Assembly (NCBI GenBank): GCA_964579845.1
Contig: CAZOHC010000001.1
Location: forward strand, 27,196 to 91,195
From: an uncultured Gammaproteobacteria bacterium
Lineage (GTDB): Bacteria; Patescibacteriota; Microgenomatia; Levybacterales; UBA12049
Reading direction: 5' to 3'
DNA: 64,000 nt
Within the stretch, counting starts at the first letter, position 1; the number at the start of each line of letters is the position of its first letter. Position numbers and translations under genes: made by a program. This document shows positions 14,658 to 52,445 of this stretch, one piece after another. Below the pieces are notes generated by a model. It worked only from the letters and a program-made list of their open reading frames with translations. It ran no database searches and had not been told where the DNA came from.

Positions 14658-15695
14658 ATGACAAAACGGGTCTTTATCACAGGCGGAACCGGCTTTTTAG
14701 GAGTCCATCTGGCCAGGCGTTTTTTACGGGAAAAATGGGATGTCACCCTCTATGACATCGCACCGCTTGATGCCAAAGACCTTATCGGAAAAGTAGAGGT
14801 CATAAGAGGAGATATCCGTGACCTTGCTGCCGTTAAGAAGGCAATGAAAAAGCATGACTACGTCGTTCATGCAGCAGCAGCACTGCCGATACAGCGCACG
14901 AAACAAGCGATTTACAGTGTGAATATTGACGGGACCAATAACGTCCTCACGGCAGCACTTGAACAGCATGTCAAACGAGTAGTCTTCATTTCAACAACAG
15001 CCGTGTACGGTGTTCCGAAACATTTACCGGAAAAAGAAGACAGTCCGCTTGACCCGATCGGCTACTACGGTGAATCAAAAGTTAGAGGCGAAGAACTTTG
15101 TTTTGCGTTTGAGAAGCGAGGGCTCGAGTCCAATATCATCAGGCCGAAAACTTTTTTAGGACCTGAGCGTTTAGGCGTTTTCTCGCTCTGGTTTGAGGCG
15201 ATGTTTAACGGACATAGGATTTTCATTCTCGGTAACGGCAACAATAAATACCAACTTCTCGCAGTCGAGGATGTTGTTGACGCAGTCTTCAGAGCACTGA
15301 CTTCCCGAGTTCACGGAGAGATATTTAATATTGGCGCAGAAAAATTCCAAACCTGGAGAAAGGATCTTGAGGACATTATCAGAGAACATAACTCCGCTTC
15401 AAAAGTCACCGGCCTTCCCGTCTTGCCGTCACAGATCATCCTCCGAGTCCTCGAAACTTTGAAGCTCTCTCCACTTTCAGCATGGCACTACATGACAATG
15501 CCGGTCCCGTCGTACGTCTCAACCGAGAAAGCACAGAAGCTTCTCGGCTGGCAAGCGACACAGTCAAATAAAGAGATACTTTCGACCAGTTACCGCTGGT
15601 ATAAAGAAAATCGGAAGAAATTACTGAGTCGAAAAGGAAACACACACAGAGTAGGATGGAACTTCAAACTGCTTTCGTGGGTTGCACGACTGTAA
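14658..15695 (+). CDS. NAD-dependent epimerase/dehydratase (extended SDR)
   Basis: 345 aa; ITGGTGFLG Rossmann motif, catalytic YGESK, extended-SDR length; TACAAT -10 box 7 nt upstream of the ATG. Confidence 0.85.
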   Translation: MTKRVFITGGTGFLGVHLARRFLREKWDVTLYDIAPLDAKDLIGKVEVIRGDIRDLAAVKKAMKKHDYVVHAAAALPIQRTKQAIYSVNIDGTNNVLTAALEQHVKRVVFISTTAVYGVPKHLPEKEDSPLDPIGYYGESKVRGEELCFAFEKRGLESNIIRPKTFLGPERLGVFSLWFEAMFNGHRIFILGNGNNKYQLLAVEDVVDAVFRALTSRVHGEIFNIGAEKFQTWRKDLEDIIREHNSASKVTGLPVLPSQIILRVLETLKLSPLSAWHYMTMPVPSYVSTEKAQKLLGWQATQSNKEILSTSYRWYKENRKKLLSRKGNTHRVGWNFKLLSWVARL

Positions 15696-18687: not shown

Positions 18688-19188
18688 ATGAATGCCTCTG
18701 ATAAAAAATCTCTCCAAAATCCGTTGCGGGTCACGACACTGACATTTCTCCTGCGGAACGATGAAATTCTCTTGGCGATGAAAAAACGAGGATTCGGAGA
18801 AGGGAAGTGGAACGGCATGGGAGGAAAGCCGATGATTGATGAGACCATTATCGATGCTGCGATCAGAGAGACTACGGAAGAAATCGGTGTGACACCGACG
18901 CAGTTAAAAAAAGTCGCAACCCTGAACTTTCATTTTCCCAAAAGGCCGGAATTTCAGGATTGGGATCAACAGGTTATTGTCTTCTTTGTCGACGAATGGG
19001 AAGGCGAACCGAAGGAAACGGAAGAAATGGCACCGAAGTGGTTTCCTATAGCAGCAATCCCGTTTTCTCAGATGTGGCCTGATGACATCCACTGGCTGCC
19101 TAAAGTCATCCAAGGTAACATTATCACCGGAGAGTTTCACTTTAATAAAGAGCTGCAGCTTGCATCTTTCTCGGTAACAGAAGAGTGA
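18688..19188 (+). CDS. NUDIX hydrolase (MutT-like)
   Basis: Nudix box GGKPMIDETIIDAAIRETTEEIGV; start at MNASDKK with TATAAT 6 nt upstream; stop TGA. Confidence 0.8.
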   Translation: MNASDKKSLQNPLRVTTLTFLLRNDEILLAMKKRGFGEGKWNGMGGKPMIDETIIDAAIRETTEEIGVTPTQLKKVATLNFHFPKRPEFQDWDQQVIVFFVDEWEGEPKETEEMAPKWFPIAAIPFSQMWPDDIHWLPKVIQGNIITGEFHFNKELQLASFSVTEE

Positions 19189-38801: not shown

Positions 38802-38957
38802 GTGCGTTGGCAGAGGATCATACGATCAAACGTAGGTTTTCTACGGCAAGTATAGCAAATCATCGAAGCGTTCACTCCCTGCAAAAAGCCCACTCTTACA
38901 TGATCTTTGCGGAAATGTTACGAATCATTGGATTTTGATAGCTATACTTTAGATATG

Positions 38958-39995
38958 ATTCGTCTTGGCTATGCTCTCTCAGGTGAAGAACATGACGCAC
39001 CGACGCTCATCACACATGCAGCGCGTGCGGAACAGGCGGGCTTCTCCTTTGCATTAGTTTCTGATCACTACCATCCTTGGATCAATCAACAGGGAGAGTC
39101 CCCGTTCGTCTGGGCTGTCCTCGGAGGCATTGCTCAACAGACACAAACAATACAGATCGGAACCGGCGTCACATGTCCAATTATCCGAATGCATCCTGCT
39201 ATTATCGCACAGGCTGCTGCAACAGTCGGACAGTTACTCGAAGATAGATTCTTCCTGGGTGTCGGAACAGGAGAAAATCTGAACGAGCACGTCATCGGGC
39301 AGGGCTGGCCGCCGATCGGAATACGCCAACAGATGCTTCGTGAGGCAATTCAGATTATACGATTACTGTGGGAAGGGAAAAATACAAATTTTAACGGAGA
39401 GTTTTACACCGTTGAAGACGCCAGAATCTATTCGCTTCCTGCGACACTCCCTAAGATCATGGTCGCTGCCTCAGGTCCGTTCAGTACTATTCTCGCAGCG
39501 CAGGTTGGAGACGGCTTTATCACCACATCACCCAACCGAGAACTTGTACAGACATTTGAAGAAACAGCCGGAACGGAAAAACCCAAATACGGGCAGATCA
39601 CTGTTTGTGTGGCAAAAAACGAAACAGACGCACTCAAAACAGCGATGAAGTGGTGGCCAAACAGTGCCATTCCGGGACAGTTTTCTCAGGAAGCGCGTAT
39701 TCCTGCGTACTTTGAGCAGGCAGCCAAACTCGTCACACCTGATCATATCAAGAAAAACTATGTCTTAGGAGCAGACCCGAAGAAACATCTTGAGGAGATT
39801 AAAAAATATGCTGACGCAGGATTTGATCACATCTATATTCACCAGATCGGACCTGATCAGGAAGCTTTCTTTACGTTATATGAGAAAGAGATTCTTCCTC
39901 AGATCAAAACGCTATCACCTGCTCGTCAAAAAAATGGGCGCAAACGAGGAAGGCCGAAGAAAAACGGCAAGATTCGATTTTCTCCTTCGCTCTAG
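38958..39995 (+). CDS. LLM-class (luciferase-like) flavin/F420-dependent oxidoreductase with a C-terminal AT-hook-like basic tail
   Basis: IRLGYALSGEEH...AGFSFALVSDHYHPW...GVGTGENLNEHV typical of F420-dependent G6PD-like LLM enzymes; the tail QKNGRKRGRPKKNGKIRF contains an RGRP AT-hook core. Confidence 0.75.
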   Translation: MRLGYALSGEEHDAPTLITHAARAEQAGFSFALVSDHYHPWINQQGESPFVWAVLGGIAQQTQTIQIGTGVTCPIIRMHPAIIAQAAATVGQLLEDRFFLGVGTGENLNEHVIGQGWPPIGIRQQMLREAIQIIRLLWEGKNTNFNGEFYTVEDARIYSLPATLPKIMVAASGPFSTILAAQVGDGFITTSPNRELVQTFEETAGTEKPKYGQITVCVAKNETDALKTAMKWWPNSAIPGQFSQEARIPAYFEQAAKLVTPDHIKKNYVLGADPKKHLEEIKKYADAGFDHIYIHQIGPDQEAFFTLYEKEILPQIKTLSPARQKNGRKRGRPKKNGKIRFSPSL

Positions 39996-40010: not shown

Positions 40011-40087
40011 TGTACCAGGGGTGGGGCACGATCCCACGACCTCAGCGTTATGAATGCTGTGCTCTAACCAGCTGAGCTACCCTGGCT
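40011..40087 (-). tRNA. tRNA with CAU anticodon (Met, or Ile2/lysidine type); non-canonical details (G1.U72, A31.C39, T-loop ATCGTGC)
   Basis: Reverse complement GCCAGGGTAGCTCAGCTGGTTAGAGCACAGCATTCATAACGCTGAGGTCGTGGGATCGTGCCCCACCCCTGGTA folds as a cloverleaf: canonical D-arm, anticodon loop TTCATAA, 5-nt variable loop. Confidence 0.6.
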
Positions 40088-40176: not shown

Positions 40177-40187
40177 CTCCTTTACGC

Positions 40188-40253
40188 GCGGGGTAGTGTA
40201 AGGCGCACGCGAGGCTCATAATCTTGCAGTCTGGTTTCGATACCAGCCCCGCA
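40188..40253 (+). ncRNA. 66-nt tRNA-like small RNA (7-bp acceptor-like stem, anticodon-like loop CUCAUAA, UUCGAU T-loop-like hairpin; compacted D/T arms)
   Basis: GCGGGGTAGTGTAAGGCGCACGCGAGGCTCATAATCTTGCAGTCTGGTTTCGATACCAGCCCCGCA; 5' GCGGGGU pairs with 3' GCCCCGC; flanked by its own promoter and terminator; about 7 nt too short for a canonical tRNA. Confidence 0.45.
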
Positions 40254-40263
40254 ACACAGAGGA

Positions 40264-42108: not shown

Positions 42109-42507
42109 ATGAGCCACGAACGAAGCGACAGACGACACGAAGAACTCCCCCAAAAGACTAATGCGCTCTTCAACCCTGGTTCTGTCTATGAAGGCATCGC
42201 ACCGGTTGTAGATATCTTAACAAGAAATCTTGCTGAACCGAAGTCATATTCTGAGGTATTTGACTTAATGAGAAAAAATGCTCCGGATCTGGATTATACC
42301 TACGGAATCCAGGTGGCACGAGATCACGGTATAATCAATGAACGATCAGTCGACAATAAGCTCGTTAATGGCCCACGTTTTACCAGACAACTCCTATTAC
42401 CGGGGTTTGATACAGAAGAACTCCAGAGGGAGCGGAGAGAGAACATGGTTCCCTTCACCAAAGAAGCGGTTGTTTTTCGTGATCCTACTCTAAAATCAGA
42501 CGAGTAA
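42109..42507 (+). CDS. hypothetical protein
   Basis: 132-aa ORF 6 nt downstream of xerC; no motif. Confidence 0.4.
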   Translation: MSHERSDRRHEELPQKTNALFNPGSVYEGIAPVVDILTRNLAEPKSYSEVFDLMRKNAPDLDYTYGIQVARDHGIINERSVDNKLVNGPRFTRQLLLPGFDTEELQRERRENMVPFTKEAVVFRDPTLKSDE

Positions 42508-43210
42508 ATCCTTCAGCGTACATGCATCCGGCATGTTTGCCAAAGACCTCAGCGCGACGACGAACTCTATCCTTTGTCTCCTCACTATCTGAAACCTGAC
42601 TGACGTGCGCTGCAATTGCCTGCCATTTCTTTTCAAACTGTTCGGAGATATCAATTACATGGTTCGGATTTTCAAACGCGACCATCCAAAGTTCTTTGAC
42701 ATGATGCGGTGAAAGTCCTGCTGCTTCATGCTCAGGATAGGTCAACCGGTCACGGGCGTACGGAAAACACGCATCCATGACAGCCTGACCACAAGCCCTA
42801 TGATCTGAGTGATTGACAAAGCTCCCTTTTCCCCACGGAGACTGTGTAATATATACAGTCGTCGGATCCCATGAGATTACAATGTCAGGCTTTATTTTCC
42901 TGATGATCTCGACAATCTCTTCGCGTACTTCCTGATTACAATCAAGCTGCGTATCCTTATGATCGAGAAAGAAGACATCTTTCAGGCCGAGGAGCTTTCC
43001 GGCATCGATCTGCTCCTGCCGTCTGATTGCCGCGAGTTGTTCGTGTGTCATCGATGGGTCTTCCGAACCACGTGAACCGTCAGTACAGATGAGATAGTAA
43101 CAATCATGCCCTTCTTCAGCGAATTTTGCAACAGTTCCTGAGGAAGTAAAATCCATATCATCAGCATGAGCTCCGACAGCCAGGATCACTTTTTTATCGT
43201 GCGTGTCCAT
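42485..43210 (-). CDS. PIG-L/LmbE-family N-acetylglucosaminyl deacetylase
   Basis: VILAVGAHADDMDF...HDCYYLICTDGSRGS...HSDHR zinc-binding motifs of the PIG-L family. Confidence 0.8.
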   Translation of the reverse strand: MDTHDKKVILAVGAHADDMDFTSSGTVAKFAEEGHDCYYLICTDGSRGSEDPSMTHEQLAAIRRQEQIDAGKLLGLKDVFFLDHKDTQLDCNQEVREEIVEIIRKIKPDIVISWDPTTVYITQSPWGKGSFVNHSDHRACGQAVMDACFPYARDRLTYPEHEAAGLSPHHVKELWMVAFENPNHVIDISEQFEKKWQAIAAHVSQVSDSEETKDRVRRRAEVFGKHAGCMYAEGFTRLILE

Positions 43211-43360: not shown

Positions 43361-43432
43361 TGCGTCCGCTTGGGATCGAACCAAGGACCACTACTTTATA
43401 AGAATAGCGCTCTACCACTGAGCTACGGACGC
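43361..43432 (-). tRNA. tRNA-Ile with UAU anticodon
   Basis: Reverse complement GCGTCCGTAGCTCAGTGGTAGAGCGCTATTCTTATAAAGTAGTGGTCCTTGGTTCGATCCCAAGCGGACGCA: perfect 7-bp acceptor, canonical D and T arms (TTCGATC), anticodon loop CTTATAA. Confidence 0.7.
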
Positions 43433-43515: not shown

Positions 43516-45882
43516 TTATAATCGGGATCGCTGAGCAATCTCTGCTTCAACTGTCTGGACAGAGCGACCGTATTTGAGTCGTGAAAGCTCTTTTATAAGC
43601 TCAGCAACCCTCGGATTCATGAGGGCTTTTTCTTTTGAGATATCTTTGGTCGTATCAAGTGAGAATGGCGGCACAGGTTCACCGTTGACAAGCGTCCGCA
43701 TGTAGCAGTTAAAGCGATCGATATTAATCAAATCAGCTTCACCGAATGTCGGCTGGAACTCATGCTGCAGATAATTAGCATCAGTAACACCAACTCTGAA
43801 AGAAGCAATCGTACCGACATTACCGAAAATAGCATTCTTCACTTCCTCTTCCATCTGTCCGACAAACTGGTTCGCAACGATCAGGCTCAAACGATATTTC
43901 CTCGCTTCTGAGAGAATTTGTGCAAAGTCAGGCGTTGCGAAGTTTTGGAACTCGTCAACATACAGGAAAAAATCCCGTCGTTGATCCTGCGGCATATCCT
44001 GTCTGCTCATCGCTGAGATTAAGATCTTCGGAACCAGAATTAATCCCAAAAAACTCGAATTTTCCTCACCGATTTTACCCTTGGAAAGGTTTACCAGCAG
44101 AATTTTCCCGGTATCCATTACCTCACGGAAGTTAAACGCATTATCAGATTGCCCGATAATATTTCTGATCATTTTATTGGTCACAAACCGACCGAATTTG
44201 GAGACGATATAGTCAAGCGTCTCTGATTTATGGAAGTCAGACGTATTTGCGATCTGATCAGTCCAGTACCGCCTGATAACCGGGTCCTCAACTTTCGGCA
44301 ACAACTCCTGCACAAAACTCTGATCCGTAAGCGCCCGGACTACCTCCATAAAGGTTGCTCCCGGCTCATACATACAGGTCAACATCGCATTTCTGATTGC
44401 ATGCTCAAACCGAGGCCCGATAATTCCTGTCTTGTTCGGGTCAAAGAGCTTGTACATAAGGCCGATGACTGAGGAGACCATCAGATGCTTCTGCTGCTCG
44501 GTTTTCCCTTCAAGTAAATTAAATCCCATGGGACGCTCCGTATCCCCCGGATCAAACAAGATAACGTCTTCTGCGCGGTGTGGCGGCACCATCTGTAGGA
44601 TATCTTCGATCAAGTCCCCGTGCGGATCGACAACAGCCAATCCTTCGCCGTTGTTAATATCCTGCATGATCATCTGCTTTAAAAACTCTGACTTACCGGT
44701 ACCGGTTTTTCCGATGATATAGGTATGACGCATTCTGTCTTCCCGGCCGACATACACAGGCTTGGAGATGCCACGAAACGTACTCTTTCCCAGATACAGT
44801 CCTTCGGTCGGAATATTAGCAGGAGCAGGCGCACGCTTCGAGTTGACCCAGTGGATACCCGGTGTTGTGACTGATTTATTCGGAAAGTGGAAAAAGGTTG
44901 CGAGTTCTTCCGTATTCAGAATTGAGGTGTGCCCCCAGAGCGGAAAGTACCGATAAATAAAATCCTGCATGAAAAGCCCTTTCATGCGAATCTTCGATTT
45001 CGTGAACGAATTCTGGCCGCTGTACTGTTCCAACGAATGAACGATATTATCAAGGTGTGCACTTGCTGCTTCTTTGGTGCTTGAGGAGACGACGACCCGT
45101 ACTGTGGTCAAAAACCCCGGCTTACCCACTTTTGTCTCAATCCCCTCCAGCTCTTTCGAGTCAGCTGAATATTTGGCGGTTTCCGGGTTTGCTTCATTTT
45201 TTTTGGTTTTGGCGATATAGTCTTTCCCGGCTTTCTTCCAGTCAGAACCGGCAGGACTGATCATCAGTTGGATAGCAGCGCCTTCTCCCGGTCCCATTTT
45301 GGCAAGAATTGAGGTGAGTGAGGACAGCGGATCAACCGGCAGATCTTTAAAGACTTTGAGCGGTTTGTAATCAGCGTCTTTTAAGCGCAGACTCGCAAAA
45401 GCAACCTTCCCATCCTCTGAAAAGATGTTATACTCGCCGCCTACTAACGCATCTGAACGCTGTTTTGCTGCAGGATCGGTTATCTCGACAACTTCAGCCT
45501 CAGGATAGGCACCGTTTATCTGTTTTTCGACAAAGTCACGCAGTTTTTTCGGGACATGGATATAGAATCTGATATCGCCGGGCTGTCCGACCATCTCAAA
45601 GGTGAGGTGAGGTGCCCGCTTCATCTGATACCACTTCGGCTGCTTTCCGATCGATGCGAGCGAGGAAAATAACTGTTCTGCAGCATCTATCTTTACTTCA
45701 TTATCACGAGGAAGGGCAACCTGCAGTAACGATGATTCCAGTGAGTCCTGTTCTCTTTTTTTATTTCGAAGCCACAGCCGAAGCGCTAAGAAGCCGACAA
45801 ATCCCAGTCCGGCAAATACTCCGATCGCCAGCAGACTTATGATGAGGGTGAGCATTAATTGATTGATTGTATCTAGGTCCAT
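43516..45882 (-). CDS. membrane-anchored FtsK/HerA-superfamily ATPase with a TraD/VirD4 (type IV coupling protein)-like NBD and TraM-recognition-like C-terminal region
   Basis: 788 aa; N-terminal TM helix, about 350-aa unassigned domain, Walker A IIGKTGTGKSEF, Walker B LYVDEFQNF, C-terminal block RKYRLSLIVANQFVGQ...IASFRVG. Confidence 0.7.
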   Translation of the reverse strand: MDLDTINQLMLTLIISLLAIGVFAGLGFVGFLALRLWLRNKKREQDSLESSLLQVALPRDNEVKIDAAEQLFSSLASIGKQPKWYQMKRAPHLTFEMVGQPGDIRFYIHVPKKLRDFVEKQINGAYPEAEVVEITDPAAKQRSDALVGGEYNIFSEDGKVAFASLRLKDADYKPLKVFKDLPVDPLSSLTSILAKMGPGEGAAIQLMISPAGSDWKKAGKDYIAKTKKNEANPETAKYSADSKELEGIETKVGKPGFLTTVRVVVSSSTKEAASAHLDNIVHSLEQYSGQNSFTKSKIRMKGLFMQDFIYRYFPLWGHTSILNTEELATFFHFPNKSVTTPGIHWVNSKRAPAPANIPTEGLYLGKSTFRGISKPVYVGREDRMRHTYIIGKTGTGKSEFLKQMIMQDINNGEGLAVVDPHGDLIEDILQMVPPHRAEDVILFDPGDTERPMGFNLLEGKTEQQKHLMVSSVIGLMYKLFDPNKTGIIGPRFEHAIRNAMLTCMYEPGATFMEVVRALTDQSFVQELLPKVEDPVIRRYWTDQIANTSDFHKSETLDYIVSKFGRFVTNKMIRNIIGQSDNAFNFREVMDTGKILLVNLSKGKIGEENSSFLGLILVPKILISAMSRQDMPQDQRRDFFLYVDEFQNFATPDFAQILSEARKYRLSLIVANQFVGQMEEEVKNAIFGNVGTIASFRVGVTDANYLQHEFQPTFGEADLINIDRFNCYMRTLVNGEPVPPFSLDTTKDISKEKALMNPRVAELIKELSRLKYGRSVQTVEAEIAQRSRL

Positions 45883-45890
45883 GATCCTCC

Positions 45891-46370
45891 TTAGATGACC
45901 TTTTCCATGCCGAATTTTTCCAGGACATACTTGGAGAGCATTGCAAGCCAGGTCTTGGAGTTACCGGGGTTACCTGAGCTTTCTTTCTTTGCCTCTTCAT
46001 AGTTCATTGCTGTCGGGAGCTGAACAGATGGTTGTGTCGGTTCGAGCGTCGTCTGCGGCTCAAAAGAGACAGGAACCGCATCTTTTGCCGGCCTGACACC
46101 TGCATCTCTCGCCTCTTCAGGAATACTCGGCTGTTCGTGTGAGGGTACGACCTCAACACCTGCTTCTTTCACATCCGGCGGAAGCTCCGGTGATGCTTCT
46201 GCAGGATGAGGTGAAACATACTCACGCACCTGCCCTATCGGTCCGTGTTCTTTATTACCGATACTCACAGGGGCAACCGGTTCAGGCTGCTGCTTCGCCG
46301 TATCAGTCTGAGACTGCGTTGGTAAAGCGGTATCAACGGCAATGTTTTGTGTGGAAGTGTTGGTGTCCAT
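45891..46370 (-). CDS. hypothetical low-complexity Pro/Glu/Thr-rich protein with a C-terminal amphipathic helix
   Basis: 159 aa; 9 nt upstream of the ATPase gene on the same strand. Confidence 0.4.
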   Translation of the reverse strand: MDTNTSTQNIAVDTALPTQSQTDTAKQQPEPVAPVSIGNKEHGPIGQVREYVSPHPAEASPELPPDVKEAGVEVVPSHEQPSIPEEARDAGVRPAKDAVPVSFEPQTTLEPTQPSVQLPTAMNYEEAKKESSGNPGNSKTWLAMLSKYVLEKFGMEKVI

Positions 46371-46449: not shown

Positions 46450-47685
46450 TCAGCACCTGACATCCCGCCGACAGGAAACATTCTGACAGTTGGTTATGAG
46501 CTGATTATACGGTCGTTTATTTTCGAATTTGCAGTGAGGACAGGAAAACGTCAGTTTCCCGTAGCGATCGGTTGCTACCCCGAATTCCATAACACTGAAA
46601 GGAACACTCATTCCGAGGTCTAGTTTACCTCCTCCTGAGAAAGCTTCCTGAGCACCTATACTGAACCCTCCTGAAAACCCACATCCTGTCGTTACCTCTC
46701 TGACAGGCAACCTTCCCCAGTAGCTGATCTGCTCGTCGATACTTTCTTCATCAGCAACCCCCCGCTGATACAGTGTTACCCATTTCCCCGTATCTCGTGT
46801 TTCCCGCTCGAGGTGATCTGCTTTATTCATAATCGTATTTAACAACGTATTTCTCTCCGTAATCGCCCATGGACGTGTGGCGAGAACATTAATATATGCC
46901 AAAAAAAGCGGCTCACATCCTTTAAGGATGTATTCATAGTCCTCACGTGACAGTGTCGTATGCTCCTTATGAAGCACGTTGTGAATATCATCAGCTGAGG
47001 TAAGTCCTGTCTGATCAGGATCAATCATGATCGGTTTACTGAGGAAGTAAGCATCAAACGGCAGATCGGTATATTCATGTTCAGCAAAATACCCGGGAGA
47101 AACTGAGGCAGCAAAGTCGATATACTCATGCCTTTCCAGTGCGGAGCTATAACGGGAAACTTCGATGACACGCTCATCGTTCTTTTCTCTGAGGGTGAAA
47201 ATGTCATAAAAATTATGTTTATACTCCGAATCTTCCCCACCAGGAGGCGAAAGCGAGATCATCCTCGTCCCGACAGGTGTTGTTTCAATCCCGAGAACTT
47301 CCTGTATCTTCGAAAACCCATCCAACTCAGCCTGTTCACGCATTCTGTCATGGTCTGACGAATTTTCATATCGATAATCCCGTCCGCGAGCAAAAACAGT
47401 CTCCAAGGGTTCATCTGAGAATGTGCTATAGATTTTCCCGCCCATGACCCTGTCTTCCCGACTGCTGATACCGGCGTTATACCGTTCACCAAGCATTGTC
47501 TTGAGATTAAAGACCGTTTCCCCATCCAGCATAGCTTTTTTCGCTGCATATTCCTCGGGTAATGTGTCCTTAAGTGCATTGAGCGCTTCGTACTTCTGTG
47601 AATCAAAATCCGGATTATATGTCAGATGACGCTCTTTTTCTGTTCGAACTTCTTTTACATATGGTCTGCTTTCTATTGTTTGCAT
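46450..47685 (-). CDS. hypothetical soluble protein with a C-terminal CPHC...C..C zinc ribbon
   Basis: 411 aa from ATG 47685 (SD GAGGAG inside the leader hairpin); no recognisable catalytic motif; first gene downstream of riboswitch-like leader 2. Confidence 0.5.
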   Translation of the reverse strand: MQTIESRPYVKEVRTEKERHLTYNPDFDSQKYEALNALKDTLPEEYAAKKAMLDGETVFNLKTMLGERYNAGISSREDRVMGGKIYSTFSDEPLETVFARGRDYRYENSSDHDRMREQAELDGFSKIQEVLGIETTPVGTRMISLSPPGGEDSEYKHNFYDIFTLREKNDERVIEVSRYSSALERHEYIDFAASVSPGYFAEHEYTDLPFDAYFLSKPIMIDPDQTGLTSADDIHNVLHKEHTTLSREDYEYILKGCEPLFLAYINVLATRPWAITERNTLLNTIMNKADHLERETRDTGKWVTLYQRGVADEESIDEQISYWGRLPVREVTTGCGFSGGFSIGAQEAFSGGGKLDLGMSVPFSVMEFGVATDRYGKLTFSCPHCKFENKRPYNQLITNCQNVSCRRDVRC

Positions 47686-47840
47686 AAAAAAACTCCTCAC
47701 TACCGAGGAGCATGCATCATACTGCACTTCTACTCGGAAGATTTCTTGGGCTCTGACTTATCTCGCCTGCGGCGGAATCACAGTTGCGGTACAGTGCTTG
47801 AATCACACAAGCTTCACCTCTGACTTTTCCAGATTACTTC
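47686..47840 (-). ncRNA. cobalamin-riboswitch-like leader 2 (aptamer core GGUGAAG...AUUC...ACCGCAACUGUGA; expression platform = SD-sequestering hairpin plus U7 abutting the ATG)
   Basis: Minus-strand RNA GGAAAAGUCAGAGGUGAAGCUUGUGUGAUUCAAGCACUGUACCGCAACUGUGAUUCCGCCGCAGGCGAGAUAAGUCAGAGCCC...GCUCCUCGGUAGUGAGGAGUUUUUUUAUG; its 5' end overlaps the last codons of pduO; paralogous to leader 1. Confidence 0.45.
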
Positions 47841-48356
47841 TTTTTTTTGATCATGATAATTAATCAGACGTGCACTACTGAAAAGCAGGTCAGACAGCCG
47901 ATTCAGGTATCTGAGAACATCCTCTTCTATCGGCTCTTGTTGTATCAGCAAGACAATACATCTTTCTGCCCGCCTGCATACTGTTCTGGCATGATGGAGC
48001 GCTGCGCCTCCTGTTCCGCCGCCCGGGAGGATAAAGTTTCGAAGCGCGGGAAGTTCAGCGGTTTGCGCATCGATCAGTGACTCAAACACCGAAATTCGTT
48101 CACCAATCCCCGACAGCTGTGTTGCAGATGGGTTTGAGAGATAGGATCCGATCGTGAAAAGGTCATGTTGAATCGCTGTCAGCTCTTGCAGTAACGCACT
48201 CTCACGATCGGGAAGTGTTGCGAGCACCATCCCCAGTACACTATTTAATTCATCAACCGTACCGTATGACTCTACCCGGAGATCTGATTTCAGGACGCGC
48301 TTTCCTCCCATGAGTGACGTTTTTCCCTTATCCCCTGTTCGTGTGTAGATTTTCAT
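47814..48356 (-). CDS. pduO: ATP:cob(I)alamin adenosyltransferase, PduO type
   Basis: MKIYTRTGDKGKTSLMGG...; 180 aa; PduO/MMAB family N-terminal signature. Confidence 0.85.
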   Translation of the reverse strand: MKIYTRTGDKGKTSLMGGKRVLKSDLRVESYGTVDELNSVLGMVLATLPDRESALLQELTAIQHDLFTIGSYLSNPSATQLSGIGERISVFESLIDAQTAELPALRNFILPGGGTGGAALHHARTVCRRAERCIVLLIQQEPIEEDVLRYLNRLSDLLFSSARLINYHDQKKEVIWKSQR

Positions 48357-48895
48357 TCTTTTTTTAATGCCGTCGCACGTGGTATGAAAAATGCGCGGAC
48401 GATTTCATACCCTCCGAAGAAAAGAGCCGTATACATGAGATCACTCAGGACGGTGTTCCTAAAAAACGGAAGTGCATAGTAATAGGCATCCATCAGTCCT
48501 GACACGGTCTTTGGGTACAGCAGTCCTCCCATCCAGACACCGAAGTTCGTCAGAAGAAAGAACAACAATGACGACGTTAATGATGCGAGCAGGACAGTCG
48601 AAACCCTGGTGTGTTTTTTCAGTGCCATACCCAAAAACGCCGTCAAGAGAAAACTGCCGTACACGTAAGGCATCGTATCATGGAAGCCGATAATCACATC
48701 CGAGAGAAACATAGCACCGAGCGGAAGGATGAGGGCATATCGTTTGTCCAGGTAAAAACCGCTGAACAGCGCCAAGGCAGCGATTGGGGCGAAGTTTGGT
48801 GCATGCGGTATGACACGAATCAGTACTGCAACAGAGATGATGACAAGCGGCAGCAGGAACGGGGTGATCGCACTTAGTAGGTTTCTATTTTCCAT
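48353..48895 (-). CDS. solitary ECF-S-component-like membrane protein (BtuM/DUF6580-like, putative vitamin transporter)
   Basis: 180 aa, about 6 TM; N-terminal PHAPNFAPIAALALFSG pattern of the DUF6580/S-component type; lies between the DUF4430 and PduO genes. Confidence 0.45.
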   Translation of the reverse strand: MENRNLLSAITPFLLPLVIISVAVLIRVIPHAPNFAPIAALALFSGFYLDKRYALILPLGAMFLSDVIIGFHDTMPYVYGSFLLTAFLGMALKKHTRVSTVLLASLTSSLLFFLLTNFGVWMGGLLYPKTVSGLMDAYYYALPFFRNTVLSDLMYTALFFGGYEIVRAFFIPRATALKKE

Positions 48896-49275
48896 TCGAT
48901 ACGGTCTCCTTCCTTCGTAATGTATTGTTGAGGCCCGACAGGAGAAGAGGTTCCGTTCACATAAAATGCCCAGAACTCTCGCTTGTCAGCTTCTGCTTCC
49001 CGTCCGTTAATTGAGGTAACAAGGCCGGCCTCGTCCTGCGTTATCTGATAGTAACGCTCAAGAAGTAATAAAGCATTGACGCCTTCCTGTCCTTCATAGG
49101 AATAGTGAGGTTCTGCTGCAGGACGTATTTCTTCTTGCGAAGCAGGCGTCGTATTCCGGCTCGCAGTCTGTGATGGTGTGAGACGAACAAGCGTAGCTCC
49201 GACAGCGATCAACGTCACGACAGAGACAACTATGAGTATCAGTTTATATTTATGTTGTTGTAACACGTTCTGCAT
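48874..49275 (-). CDS. DUF4430 (transcobalamin/IF-beta-like) putative cobalamin-binding protein
   Basis: N-terminal anchor; ALLLLERYYQITQDEAGLVTSINGREAEADKREFWAFYVNGTSSPVG...GDRIEWK matches the DUF4430 signature (W.YYVNG...GD.I.W). Start at MQNVLQQ (49275) directly after the U-run of leader 1. Confidence 0.7.
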   Translation of the reverse strand: MQNVLQQHKYKLILIVVSVVTLIAVGATLVRLTPSQTASRNTTPASQEEIRPAAEPHYSYEGQEGVNALLLLERYYQITQDEAGLVTSINGREAEADKREFWAFYVNGTSSPVGPQQYITKEGDRIEWKIETY

Positions 49276-49419
49276 AAAAAAACTCCTCACCCGAGGAGTA
49301 TAGTCATCGTACGAACGATGCTTCCTGCTCGGGATAGAAACTACTGACTCGTTTTCTGACTGTCACAGTTACGGCATAGCCACGGACTTGCACCGTGCTT
49401 TCCGAATCAGTAGGATAGA
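49276..49419 (-). ncRNA. cobalamin-riboswitch-like leader 1 (GGUGCAAGUCC...GCCGUAACUGUGA core; hairpin+U7 platform that sequesters the SD)
   Basis: Minus-strand RNA ...GGAAAGCACGGUGCAAGUCCGUGGCUAUGCCGUAACUGUGACAGUCAGAAAACGAG...CUCCUCGGGUGAGGAGUUUUUUUAUG fills the 145-nt nrdJ/DUF4430 intergenic region; resembles the RF00174 core (GGUGnnAAUCC, CCGCnACUGU). Confidence 0.5.
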
Positions 49420-51903
49420 TTAACATTCGCTATAGCCACAACTATAGCATTTTTTACAACCCTCTTCATACGCAAAACTACTGGTTCCGCACTCAGGGCA
49501 GATATCAAATAGGTTTGTTGTGGAGCTTGATAGATCATAGCCTTTTTCCTGAGGGATCATCGCAAGCTGTCCTTGAGGAACTGCTGCTTCGGAAGAAACT
49601 TGCTCTGAGGGTTCATCATGTTTCACACCGCTTCCGTTCGTGCTCCCTGCTGATACTGTCGCCGGAGACTGGAGCACCTGCGCGACAACTTCTTTATCTT
49701 CGACTTTCCCGTTTACTTTAAAATTTGAGTGCTTCGCAAGTGTTTTCGCCACGGCATCCGGTAATGAGCGAACCCGATTCTCTCCGAATCCGATGCTTCT
49801 TGCACCGCCCAGACCTGATAATTCCGAGATGATCTCTCGCATACGCTCTCGTGTCGGAACAGGGCTGTGAACACGGAGAACAAAAGAAATCATTCTGCCT
49901 AAAGCATCTGCCATTGCCATCAGGTCTGAACCTGATTTACCGTTATTAATAAAGACCTCAAACGGCTCGTTCTTCTCGTTGTGATTAATCGTGATATAGG
50001 TTTTCCCCGTCGGACTGGCTGTTTTATATGTGGTTCCGGTCAGCATCATCGGTCGGGACACACGAGGTGTGGCAGGAATAACAGGTTCAACAGGCACTGA
50101 TTTTTCAGCAGCTTGTTTATCAACAGCAGCATCTTTCTTTTTCTCATCAACGCGCTCTAACACACCAGCACGTGAGCCGTCGCGGAAATACGTTACACCT
50201 TTCAGCCCCATATCATAGGCCATCATATATAACGTCTTCACGTCATCAATGGTATGAGCATTCGGTGCGTTAACGGTTTTGGAAATCGAAGAATCAATAT
50301 ACTCCTGAGCAACTGCCTGCACTCGAGCGTGCTCAAGCGGCGTCAGGTCATTGGATGAGACAAAGTAGTCAGGTCGCTCTTCAGTCGGGTGAGCGTTTTT
50401 CCAGATCTCAAGCAGTGGATGGTACAGGATGTGCTCGCCTGTTCTGTCACGTCGAACAAAGGTAAACTCATATACAGGCTCAATTCCTGATGAAACACCG
50501 GAGAGGAGGGATGTGGTTCCGGTTGGAGCAATTGTTAACAGGACAGCATTGCGAATACCGTTTTTCGCGATTTTGTTCTGGATTGCTTTCGGGAGTGCTT
50601 TAATGTGATGGCCTTGCATGTATTTGTCCGCATCAAACATCGGGAACGCACCTTTTTCTTTCGCAATATCAGCTGATGCGTCGTATGCATTATCTCTGAG
50701 TGTTGCGAAGATCTTCTTAATAACCGGAAGTGATTCCTCAGAGCCATATCGGATTTTCATTTTGATTAGAGCATCTGCAATACCCATAATTCCCAGACCT
50801 GTTCTTCTGATATCTTTTGCACATTTTTCATTTTCTTTATAGAAGTAATAGGTATCGTCAATAACATTGTCTAAAAAGCGCATCGCGATACGCACGTCAT
50901 TCCCGAATGCCTCGTAATCAAACGTACCAGCTTTATCATTGGCGAGGTCTTCTCCTTTGACATACGCTGAGAGGTTCATCGCACCGAGATTACAGACAGC
51001 CCATGGGCCAAGCGGCTGTTCTCCGCATGGATTGGTCGCCTGCAGTCGTTCAAAATACCAGGTATTACTCCATTTATTTGAGCGCTCCAGGAAGTGAAGG
51101 CCGGGCTCAGCTGATTTCCAGGCAGCGGTACAGATCAGATCCCAGAGTTCCCGCGCTTTAACTGTTTTATAGACTTTCACTGCTCCGCCGAGTTCTTTCC
51201 ACTTTGCCATATCGCCGTCCCAGTCTGAATCATACTTCGGATCATCAAGATCAGGATACATGAGGTCCCAGTCCGAATCATCTTTGACAGCCTGCATAAA
51301 TGAGTCAGAAATACAGACAGAGAGATTCGCACCGTTAATTTTTGAGACATCCTGTTTTACCGTAATAAACTCCTCAACATCAGGATGCCAATCCCAGAGC
51401 ATGAGCATGGTAGCACCGCGACGCGAACCACCCTGCTGCACAATATCATGGGTTGCGACTGAGAAGAGGTTTGCCCAGTTGACAGGCCCTGAGGACGTCC
51501 CGTTTACCTTACGGACACGAGCTCCACGAGGTCGGAGTGAGGATAGGTTCAGCCCGACCCCGCCTGAGCGAGCTTGAATTTCAACTAATTGGCCAAGGGA
51601 TTCGAGGATACCGCCACGGGAATCTTTCGGAGATGGAATCACAAAGCAGTTAAAATACGTAACCTGGTAATCAGTTCCTGCTCCTGAGAGGATACGACCG
51701 CCCGGGACAAATTTAAAATCCGTCATGACGTCGTAAAACTTTTTCTGCCATTCACGGCGGACTTCTTTACTTTCTTGTTTAGCAACCCCACGGGCAACTC
51801 GCTTCCACATCTCTTCAGGAGTAGTCTCCGTCGGATCTCCGGCTTCATTCTTTAAGGAATAGCGATCTAAGAATACTTTTTGTCTGATACCGTCAAGTTT
51901 CAT
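49420..51903 (-). CDS. nrdJ: adenosylcobalamin-dependent (class II) ribonucleotide reductase
   Basis: 827 aa; NCFVIPSP..GGVGLNLSSLRPRGARV, NPCGEQPL, C-terminal C..C...C..C zinc ribbon. Confidence 0.9.
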   Translation of the reverse strand: MKLDGIRQKVFLDRYSLKNEAGDPTETTPEEMWKRVARGVAKQESKEVRREWQKKFYDVMTDFKFVPGGRILSGAGTDYQVTYFNCFVIPSPKDSRGGILESLGQLVEIQARSGGVGLNLSSLRPRGARVRKVNGTSSGPVNWANLFSVATHDIVQQGGSRRGATMLMLWDWHPDVEEFITVKQDVSKINGANLSVCISDSFMQAVKDDSDWDLMYPDLDDPKYDSDWDGDMAKWKELGGAVKVYKTVKARELWDLICTAAWKSAEPGLHFLERSNKWSNTWYFERLQATNPCGEQPLGPWAVCNLGAMNLSAYVKGEDLANDKAGTFDYEAFGNDVRIAMRFLDNVIDDTYYFYKENEKCAKDIRRTGLGIMGIADALIKMKIRYGSEESLPVIKKIFATLRDNAYDASADIAKEKGAFPMFDADKYMQGHHIKALPKAIQNKIAKNGIRNAVLLTIAPTGTTSLLSGVSSGIEPVYEFTFVRRDRTGEHILYHPLLEIWKNAHPTEERPDYFVSSNDLTPLEHARVQAVAQEYIDSSISKTVNAPNAHTIDDVKTLYMMAYDMGLKGVTYFRDGSRAGVLERVDEKKKDAAVDKQAAEKSVPVEPVIPATPRVSRPMMLTGTTYKTASPTGKTYITINHNEKNEPFEVFINNGKSGSDLMAMADALGRMISFVLRVHSPVPTRERMREIISELSGLGGARSIGFGENRVRSLPDAVAKTLAKHSNFKVNGKVEDKEVVAQVLQSPATVSAGSTNGSGVKHDEPSEQVSSEAAVPQGQLAMIPQEKGYDLSSSTTNLFDICPECGTSSFAYEEGCKKCYSCGYSEC

Positions 51904-51906
51904 AGT

Positions 51907-52356
51907 TTAATTAGTTAAGGTCTTCACTTCTTTTTCAAAATCCTCTGCATCAACAAACCGTTTAAAGACACTCGCAAATCTGATATAGGCGACTTTATCG
52001 AGTTTTTTCAGCTCACCTGCAACGATCTCACCTATTCTCGCACTCTCAATCTCACTTTTCTCAGCGCACCTGGTCTCCCGTTCGATTGCAGTCACAATCC
52101 GCTCTATCTCTCCTACAGGAACAACTGTTTTCTCACATGCCCTGAGAATTCCTGTTTTTAATTTATCCCGATCAAAACGTTCACGTTTTCCGTCACGTTT
52201 GATCACGATCAAATTAACTGTTTCGATACGCTCATACGTCGTAAACCGCTTCGCACATGAAAAGCATGCCCTCCGCCTTCTGATCGTATCTAGGTCTTCA
52301 TTATCCCGTGTTTCAACAACTTCTGTTTCCCGGCTACCGCAATAAGGACAATGCAT
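51907..52356 (-). CDS. nrdR: transcriptional repressor NrdR
   Basis: MHCPYCGSRETEVVETR...CFSCAKRF zinc ribbon plus ATP-cone; start at internal ATG 52356. Confidence 0.9.
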   Translation of the reverse strand: MHCPYCGSRETEVVETRDNEDLDTIRRRRACFSCAKRFTTYERIETVNLIVIKRDGKRERFDRDKLKTGILRACEKTVVPVGEIERIVTAIERETRCAEKSEIESARIGEIVAGELKKLDKVAYIRFASVFKRFVDAEDFEKEVKTLTN

Positions 52357-52395
52357 ACATCTCGTTTCTCCAGTATTTCGAGCCTGATCCGAAAA

Positions 52396-52445
52396 CACTA
52401 GATTTAGTATCCAAGAAAATCATAGGCCACTACATAGGTAGTGTC
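52396..52445 (-). promoter_or_regulatory. two NrdR-box-like palindromes upstream of nrdR-nrdJ
   Basis: cACTAGATTTAGTat (52396-52410) and cCACTACATAGGTAGTGtc (52427-52445), centres about 33 bp apart; resemble the NrdR-box consensus acaCTAtATaTAGtgt. Confidence 0.45.

Follow-up and report, generated by a model that had tools for sequence, protein, structure and literature searches.

Compact cobalamin riboswitches of class II, represented in Rfam by the adenosylcobalamin (AdoCbl) family AdoCbl-II (RF01689, env8 type), are built around a P3-P6 four-way junction that lacks a large peripheral domain, and they carry the B12 box AGUCAG, a conserved L5 that contains CC, and a kissing loop between L5 and L13 as the regulatory link. 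In env8 the L13 hairpin itself bears the ribosome-binding site (RBS; PMC5028336), and in env8 and env50 helix P1 together with the J1/3 internal loop (T-loop) sets the selectivity for AdoCbl versus methylcobalamin (PMC6158498). A mechanism in which a kissing loop, P13, an antiterminator and a terminator act together has been validated by mutagenesis for the corrinoid riboswitch of Priestia megaterium metE (Kennedy et al. 2023, PMC10327014). Here, we examine two leaders in a 64-kb stretch of DNA (the window; contig CAZOHC010000001.1, positions 27,196 to 91,195) from an uncultured bacterium of the Levybacterales, within the candidate phyla radiation (CPR). Both leaders, like the genes of their operon, lie on the minus strand. 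They are, very probably, class II cobalamin riboswitches acting as repressors of their downstream genes: the DUF4430, DUF6580 and pduO genes in the case of leader 1, and the gene for an uncharacterised protein of 411 amino acids (aa) in the case of leader 2.

The two leaders share with RF01689 the compact junction, the conserved L5, the B12 box and the L5-L13 kissing loop, and differ from it in their closing helices. In the Rfam alignment of leader 1 the 7-nucleotide (nt) J1/3 of the model is deleted, and P1 and P3 form one unbroken helix, which covaries in the subtype to which this leader belongs (type A); leader 2 and its subtype (type B) have no P1 at all. The P1 with J1/3 of env8 and env50 is found in neither leader and, because the J1/3 element is absent from both, the form of B12 that they would sense cannot be read from the env8 rules. 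Unlike env8, both have P13 as a separate hairpin 5' of a terminator/sequestering hairpin. The switching logic of P13, antiterminator and terminator is that of P. megaterium metE, although the pairing partners are not the same. In metE, P13 uses its 3' side to pair with the terminator's 5' side, whereas in the window leaders the 5' arm of P13 and the kissing bases (YYCGAG) would pair with the terminator in its 5' arm and loop. Since YYCGAG includes bases of the kissing loop, kissing and antitermination would here compete for the same nucleotides, unlike in metE. A further difference from metE is that the 3' arm of the terminator in the window leaders is the RBS, and the start codon abuts the U-tract.

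Class assignment, covariation and two aptamer subtypes

Leader 1 (49273-49413) matched RF01689 over the full model (positions 1-81) with 51.1 bits against a cut-off of 36.5 (E = 1.7e-9). The best Rfam match of leader 2 (47683-47822) was the AdoCbl family RF01482, at 31.9 bits against a cut-off of 50 (E = 0.0019 in a 2.1-kb search), and covered core positions 29-95 of the model while its outer helices were unmatched. To judge leader 2 independently of Rfam, we used a covariance model (R1) that was built from 15 riboswitches lying directly 5' of homologues of the 411-aa protein, with the sequences of the window left out. The homologues numbered 87, from Levybacteria and other CPR bacteria, and the related loci numbered 73, of which 17 genomic and 52 metagenomic ones were collected with a 12-sequence alignment and 4 came from close relatives. 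Leader 1 scored 64.9 bits with R1, and leader 2, matched over positions 1-141 of 141 with the match starting at 47822, scored 95.8 bits (E about 1e-16). No other match in the window exceeded 11 bits. Because this full-length match comes from a model built without the window sequences, leader 2 does, as far as its sequence can tell, belong to a lineage-specific set of true cobalamin riboswitches missed by Rfam cut-offs.

Across the 73 loci and the window there were 74 instances of R1, 61 of them distinct, all on the gene strand and all 5' of pduO, of the DUF4430 gene or of the 411-aa gene. An Rfam scan of the related loci likewise returned matches to the cobalamin clan (CL00101) on the gene strand, several of them above the cut-off, directly 5' of the 411-aa homologue or 5' of the preceding pduO. 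RF01482 is the best Rfam match not only of leader 2 but also of type B relatives with a short P6 extension, two of which scored 47.2 bits (L014) and 51.6 bits (L003). The original prediction, made from the letters of the window, had proposed compact riboswitches of the cobalamin type in both leaders, to be checked against Rfam. Rfam bears this out for leader 1 and not for leader 2, and for the latter it is R1 that supports the proposal, together with covariation among the 61 relatives. Both leaders do contain two of the conserved boxes that had been read there, CCG(U/C)AACUGUGA and AGUCAGA; the third, GGUG-N-AUYC, holds loosely but not in that exact form, the actual sequences being GGUGCAAGUCC and UGUGUGAUUC.

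Covariation in the homologous leaders, which had also been named as a check, was pronounced. Among the 61 distinct sequences, 95.3% of the cells were paired compared to 76.2% in shuffles, and changes on both sides of a pair occurred in 25 of the 30 pairs, which none of 500 shuffles reached. Shifting the partner by 1-3 columns lowered pairing to 36-47%. The alignment was fitted to the nested helices of R1, so these counts favour those helices; the kissing loop lies outside the model. P3, P4, P5 and P6 were 84-100% paired, 12 of their 14 pairs showing double changes, and the terminator hairpin (helix 8) was 97% paired, with double changes in all seven. The small hairpin P13 covaried too. Both leaders align over their full length to R1 and show the four-way junction of P3-P6 with its conserved core (purine-rich J3/4, GCC in L5, B12 box AGUCAG).

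The kissing loop would couple this aptamer to the rest of the leader, and neither it nor P13 had been part of the original prediction. Among the relatives, L5 (UGCCG) and the P13 loop (CG-A-GCA, one base of it bulged) hardly vary, and the five proposed L5-L13 pairs are 97.5-99.4% paired among the 61 sequences. There are only two variants of L5, each accompanied by a complementary change in L13, and no broken cell exists at either pair. One is leader 2 itself, where UACCG with CGAGUA replaces a G-C by an A-U pair, a combination unique among the 61; the other, AGCCG with CGAGCU in L023 and L024, turns U-A into A-U. That the G to A change in L5 of leader 2 is exactly compensated by its own C to U change in L13 argues that this leader has been under selection as a working switch. 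Some family members (L001, L016, L032 and L070) have one or two additional hairpins within the L13 loop, placed after CGAGC.

The aptamers fall into two subtypes. Type A has a long P1 that is continuous with P3 and lacks the J1/3 internal loop; this P1 covaries, the pairing energy with its own partner being -5.6 kcal/mol compared to -2.3 kcal/mol for permuted partners (none of 5000 permutations was as low). The P3 of type B is only 4 base pairs (bp; CGGG with CCCG) long, and a one-hairpin extension of P6 is often present. A P1 helix sought in type B and leader 2 was not found, own partners giving -1.0 and permuted partners -1.3 kcal/mol, which is not significant. Among the 66 loci with enough upstream DNA, a riboswitch was found 5' of pduO only in 33, and directly 5' of the 411-aa gene in 23, in which none was found on the pduO side or the upstream DNA there was too short. 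Eight loci have both, like the window, and two have neither. Locus L009 has the same two-riboswitch operon as the window, with the stop codon of pduO again inside GGGUGAA; its DUF4430-like and DUF6580-like genes were judged by eye from translations of open reading frames (ORFs).

Leaders 1 and 2 had been called paralogous. Their near-identical 3' module stands, and proves to be family-wide, but recent duplication does not: because types A and B each recur at their own position in other Levybacteria, with orthologues of their own, we regard the two leaders as distinct subtypes, each conserved in its place. An 8-mer common to both 5' of the hairpin (GUAYGAUG) was considered as a sign of recent duplication and rejected, being absent in close relatives and, by a rough estimate, attributable to chance. 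Further riboswitches in the window were also considered, at motif matches around 34130 and at 18873-18988; the best R1 score was 11 bits and neither Rfam scan matched there.

Expression platform and proposed switch

The leaders share a 20-nt exact repeat (47681-47700 and 49271-49290), GUGAGGAG-U7-AUGCA, and GAGGAGTTTTTTTATG occurs exactly twice in the window compared to none expected from shuffles, in agreement with the shared 3' module first noticed there. In both leaders, again as first described, the 3' arm of a hairpin is the GAGGAG Shine-Dalgarno (SD) sequence, and a run of seven U starting at the last base of the hairpin leads to the start codon. A terminator scan predicted both hairpins as terminators (7-8 pairs, four G-C pairs and the seven-U run). 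Comparison with the relatives shows that this platform is no peculiarity of one genome but a family-wide design in three parts: P13, of 3-5 bp with the loop CGAGCA; a spacer, which forms a hairpin in 16 of 58 relatives (the two window leaders among them); and a hairpin of 7-8 bp with the RBS as its 3' arm, followed by U6-U8 and then, usually, by AUG.

The first and third parts are linked by complementarity. The 5' arm of P13 with the first loop bases (YYCGAG) can pair with a CUCGRR segment that lies in the last hairpin, in its 5' arm and loop, and this pairing excludes both P13 and the terminator. In leader 1 it joins CCCGAG to CUCGGG, and the spacer hairpin of that leader would, in the folding model, cap the antiterminator. 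We assessed the pairing by a partner-swap test, a register-free permutation of duplex energies, in which own partners had a mean of -8.69 kcal/mol compared to -7.02 +/- 0.24 kcal/mol for permuted ones (0 of 20,000 as low). The signal was retained within the subtypes (3 of 20,000 as low for type A and 2 of 20,000 for type B). At flanking positions of the antiterminator C-G has changed to U-A, and in L049 and L057 an inserted base is compensated (CGAAG with CUUCG).

Alone, P13 has a folding energy of about -1.4 kcal/mol in leader 1 and about -1.0 kcal/mol in leader 2, and the terminator hairpins have -9.9 to -11.2 kcal/mol. With the RBS kept free, the platform's ON and OFF folds differ by at most about 3 kcal/mol in both window leaders, and without constraints the antiterminator fold has the lowest energy. 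These modelled energies fit a bistable switch in both. In the mechanism that we propose, P13 would be the element that couples sensing by the aptamer to the hairpin, its 5' half serving alternatively as antiterminator. When B12 is absent, P13 would be too weak to hold, the antiterminator would form and the RBS would stay free, leaving the gene on. Bound B12 would let the L5-L13 kissing loop lock P13, which would free CUCGRR for the terminator/sequestering hairpin. Transcription would then end at the U-tract, and any mRNA of full length would have its RBS buried.

Alternatively, control might be purely translational, the hairpin merely hiding the RBS and U7 being an A/U-rich 7-nt spacer with no terminator function. 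The geometry of the platform suits such an account: the RBS is the 3' arm of the hairpin, AUG follows right after the U-run, the stems are modest (-9.9 and -11.2 kcal/mol), and in the second riboswitch of L007 (3860-4019) and in L033 and L034 no such hairpin exists and AUG comes straight after P13, an env8-like translational layout. We nevertheless consider it unlikely. A run of U6-U8 is kept in nearly all relatives, though the sequence of a spacer could vary freely, and both window hairpins satisfy the terminator pattern. Moreover, in L017, L040, L066 and L067 the same hairpin and U-run lie 25-70 nt 5' of a separate start region and, at that distance from the start codon, the hairpin can only be a terminator. 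Since the U-run persists across very divergent relatives and the hairpin lies so far upstream in these four, the hairpin probably terminates transcription in addition to masking the RBS. The family thus holds three platform designs, namely a terminator fused to the RBS, a terminator that precedes a separate start region by 25-70 nt, and AUG directly after P13 without a terminator. In a variant of type A (L029, L038, L045 and L053) UCCUCCUUGGGA...AAUAUG comes after P13 and there is no hairpin with a U-tract; the CUUGGG segment is still able to pair with CCCGAG.

Leader 2 at the end of pduO

Several points weigh against two working switches, and most of them concern leader 2. Across the family, the antiterminator counted column by column on the R1 alignment is 74% paired, no better than shuffles, the register of the terminator arm differing between the subtypes; each covariation in the kissing loop represents a single event; and we know of no demonstration of intrinsic termination in CPR bacteria. 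Leader 2 falls below every Rfam gathering score. Only two of the four family pairs of its P3 are canonical, and the 5' strand of this helix lies in the coding sequence (CDS) of pduO: the last 9 nt of pduO overlap the leader, whose R1 match begins at 47822, and the stop codon UGA (47814-47816) falls within GGUGAAG of the aptamer, which confirms the overlap noted originally. Ribosomes ending translation of pduO would cover the 5' strand of the aptamer. The weak P3 and the overlap may mean a lower affinity, or that translation of pduO disturbs folding. The antiterminator of leader 2 has just 5 bp (-8.0 kcal/mol) compared to 7-9 bp in many relatives, and no riboswitch was found at this position in the three nearest relatives (protein identity about 50%). 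Leader 2 may be a weaker switch than its relatives, or work only co-transcriptionally or on a transcript of its own.

Taken together, the sub-threshold Rfam score, the reduced P3 over the pduO stop codon, the short antiterminator and the closest relatives that have nothing at this position could instead describe a decaying type B relic without useful B12 binding, in which the hairpin is a constitutive attenuator or plain RBS context and the 411-aa gene depends on read-through from leader 1. We think this quite improbable, given that leader 2 matches R1 over its full length with P4, P5, P6, P13 and the terminator intact, that its unique L5 change is matched exactly in L13, which points to selection on its kissing loop, and that L009 keeps the same operon with the stop codon of pduO in the same motif. 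As for the null set by the original prediction, that the leaders are duplicated terminator-plus-RBS modules with a chance likeness to the B12 box and no ligand sensing, the 3' module is indeed where they most conspicuously resemble each other, but with leader 1 above the Rfam cut-off, R1 matching both, covariation behind all aptamer helices and the kissing loop, and aptamers of different subtype that each have orthologues elsewhere, it is barely credible.

A separate observation concerns the B12 box of leader 2. Its 12-mer GAUAAGUCAGAG (47751-47762, minus strand) recurs with one mismatch as GAAAAGUCAGAG (47818-47829, minus strand), inside the CDS of pduO and directly 5' of the aptamer. This copy, absent in L009, may be due to chance or may be an alternative pairing partner.

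The operon, the 411-aa protein family and their surroundings

In the window nrdJ and the DUF4430, DUF6580 and pduO genes are adjacent, an order that is kept in the relatives (Table 1). NrdJ is likely the consumer of AdoCbl, and the other three are probable genes for B12 capture, uptake and adenosylation. The 411-aa protein carries the invariant motifs GER, HNFYD and TGCGxSGG and a C-terminal zinc ribbon with four Cys. It had no match in Pfam or NCBIfam, a profile search of the PDB with the family returned only weak zinc-ribbon matches (E about 0.1-0.3), and a Foldseek search of the PDB gave nothing at E <= 0.001. The AlphaFold model of the protein is confident (predicted local distance difference test, pLDDT, 84). 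Clustered at 50%, the family comprises 577 representatives, and the 150 of them that were listed all match in a single stretch. Its gene stands behind a cobalamin riboswitch in 64 of the 66 loci and, because of this constant place, beside pduO and nrdJ, a B12-related role for the protein is likely. The more specific proposal, a new cobalamin-related CPR family (Levybacteria and relatives) with a role in B12 salvage or processing, or else in B12-sparing, has about even chances. The riboswitch of this family is often the minimal subtype without P1, which is frequently missed by Rfam thresholds. Two aptamer subtypes in one operon could answer different corrinoid forms or concentrations, giving a two-step control of uptake and adenosylation on the one hand and of the 411-aa gene on the other.

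Riboswitch biology itself gains little from these leaders, as class II cobalamin riboswitches and the logic that joins a kissing loop with P13, an antiterminator and a terminator are already known. What they add is natural covariation in support of the platform logic and a P1-less subtype that standard annotation often misses. Their practical value is for annotation: they point to a small B12 regulon in CPR bacteria whose genomes are reduced and whose sole ribonucleotide reductase depends on scavenged B12, and they tie the uncharacterised 411-aa family to B12 physiology, making it a concrete experimental target. The interest is modest, then, and comes mainly from the sub-threshold P1-less subtype and from the uncharacterised gene family under its control.

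Table 1. Positions in the window of the two leaders, their parts and the surrounding genes
Feature	Position	Strand	Evidence	Remarks
nrdR	51907-52398	-		
NrdJ, class II (B12-dependent) ribonucleotide reductase	49420-51903	-	Pfam PF02867, PF00317, PF12637	
Leader 1	49276-49419	-		between nrdJ and DUF4430 gene
Leader 1 aptamer, type A	49341-49413	-	Rfam RF01689, model R1	
Leader 1 continuous P1/P3 helix	49403-49413 with 49341-49351	-		
Leader 1 P4	49381-49397	-		
Leader 1 P5/L5	49369-49379	-		kissing bases UGCCG 49372-49376
Leader 1 P6 with B12 box AGUCAGA	49355-49368	-		
Leader 1 P13 hairpin UCC-CGAGCA-GGA	49323-49334	-	pair counts, partner-swap test	loop 49326-49331, L5 kissing partner
Leader 1 antiterminator strand CCCGAG	49328-49333	-	partner-swap test	
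Leader 1 spacer hairpin CAUCGU-UCGU-ACGAUG	49305-49320	-	folding, -6.8 kcal/mol	
Leader 1 predicted terminator/SD-sequestering hairpin ACUCCUC-GGGU-GAGGAGU	49282-49299	-	terminator scan, covariation	
Leader 1 SD GAGGAG	49283-49288	-		
Leader 1 antiterminator partner CUCGGG	49290-49295	-		
Leader 1 U7	49276-49282	-		
AUG of DUF4430 gene	49273-49275	-		
DUF4430 protein, 133 aa	48874-49275	-	Pfam PF14478, E = 9e-14	from ATG at 49275; first gene under leader 1
DUF6580 membrane protein, 180 aa	48353-48895	-	Pfam PF20221, E = 4.8e-51	
PduO-type ATP:cob(I)alamin adenosyltransferase, 180 aa	47814-48356	-	Pfam PF01923, E = 2.7e-57	
Leader 2	47686 to ~47822	-		between pduO and 411-aa gene; 5' end inside pduO
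Leader 2 aptamer, type B, no P1	47748-47822	-	Rfam RF01482 (sub-threshold), model R1	
Leader 2 P3, GG/CC only	47817-47818 with bases within 47748-47750	-		
Leader 2 J3/4 UGAAG	47812-47816	-		includes pduO stop codon
Leader 2 P4	47796-47812	-		
Leader 2 P5/L5	47784-47794	-		kissing bases UACCG 47787-47791
Leader 2 P6 with one-hairpin extension	47753-47783	-		B12 box 47751-47758
Leader 2 P13 hairpin CUUC-CGAGUA-GAAG	47727-47740	-		loop 47731-47736, L5 kissing partner
Leader 2 antiterminator strand CCGAG	47733-47737	-		
Leader 2 spacer hairpin UGCA-GUAUGA-UGCA	47713-47726	-	folding, -3.5 kcal/mol	
Leader 2 predicted terminator/SD-sequestering hairpin GCUCCUCG-GUAG-UGAGGAGU	47692-47711	-	terminator scan, model R1	
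Leader 2 SD	47693-47698	-		
Leader 2 CUCGG	47703-47707	-		
Leader 2 U7	47686-47692	-		
AUG of 411-aa gene	47683-47685	-		
411-aa protein, uncharacterised family	46450-47685	-	no Pfam/NCBIfam match	gene under leader 2
Proline-rich protein, 159 aa	within 43516-46370	-		3' of 411-aa gene
VirD4/TraG-like ATPase, ~790 aa	within 43516-46370	-	TrwB_AAD_bind, DUF8128	3' of proline-rich gene

The stop codon of nrdJ lies 6 nt 5' of the first aptamer base of leader 1, within GAAUGUUAAUCU (49420-49440, minus strand), which could also serve as a TG-extended -10-like box (TGTTAATCT) just 5' of P1. On the other side of the operon, most of the Levybacteria loci examined have genes for a proline-rich protein (about 160 aa) and a VirD4/TraG-like protein 3' of the 411-aa gene; the linkage of this pair to the nrdJ/B12 cluster is conserved, and we have no explanation for it. 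The window contains three tRNA genes, at 40013-40086 (minus), 40187-40254 (plus) and 43361-43432 (minus), the last of them just 3' of the VirD4-like gene, an arrangement shared by many of the related loci.

An SD-like motif within 22 nt of the ATG was present in just 7 of the 39 window ORFs of at least 200 aa. Many window ORFs have a box like TATAAT, TACAAT or TATACT 6-12 nt before the ATG, for example those at 42485-43210 (minus), 14658-15695 (plus) and 38955-39995 (plus), and the closeness of these boxes to the start codons suggests that leaderless mRNAs may be widespread in the window. Against this SD-poor background, the strong GAGGAG of both riboswitch-controlled genes is conspicuous.

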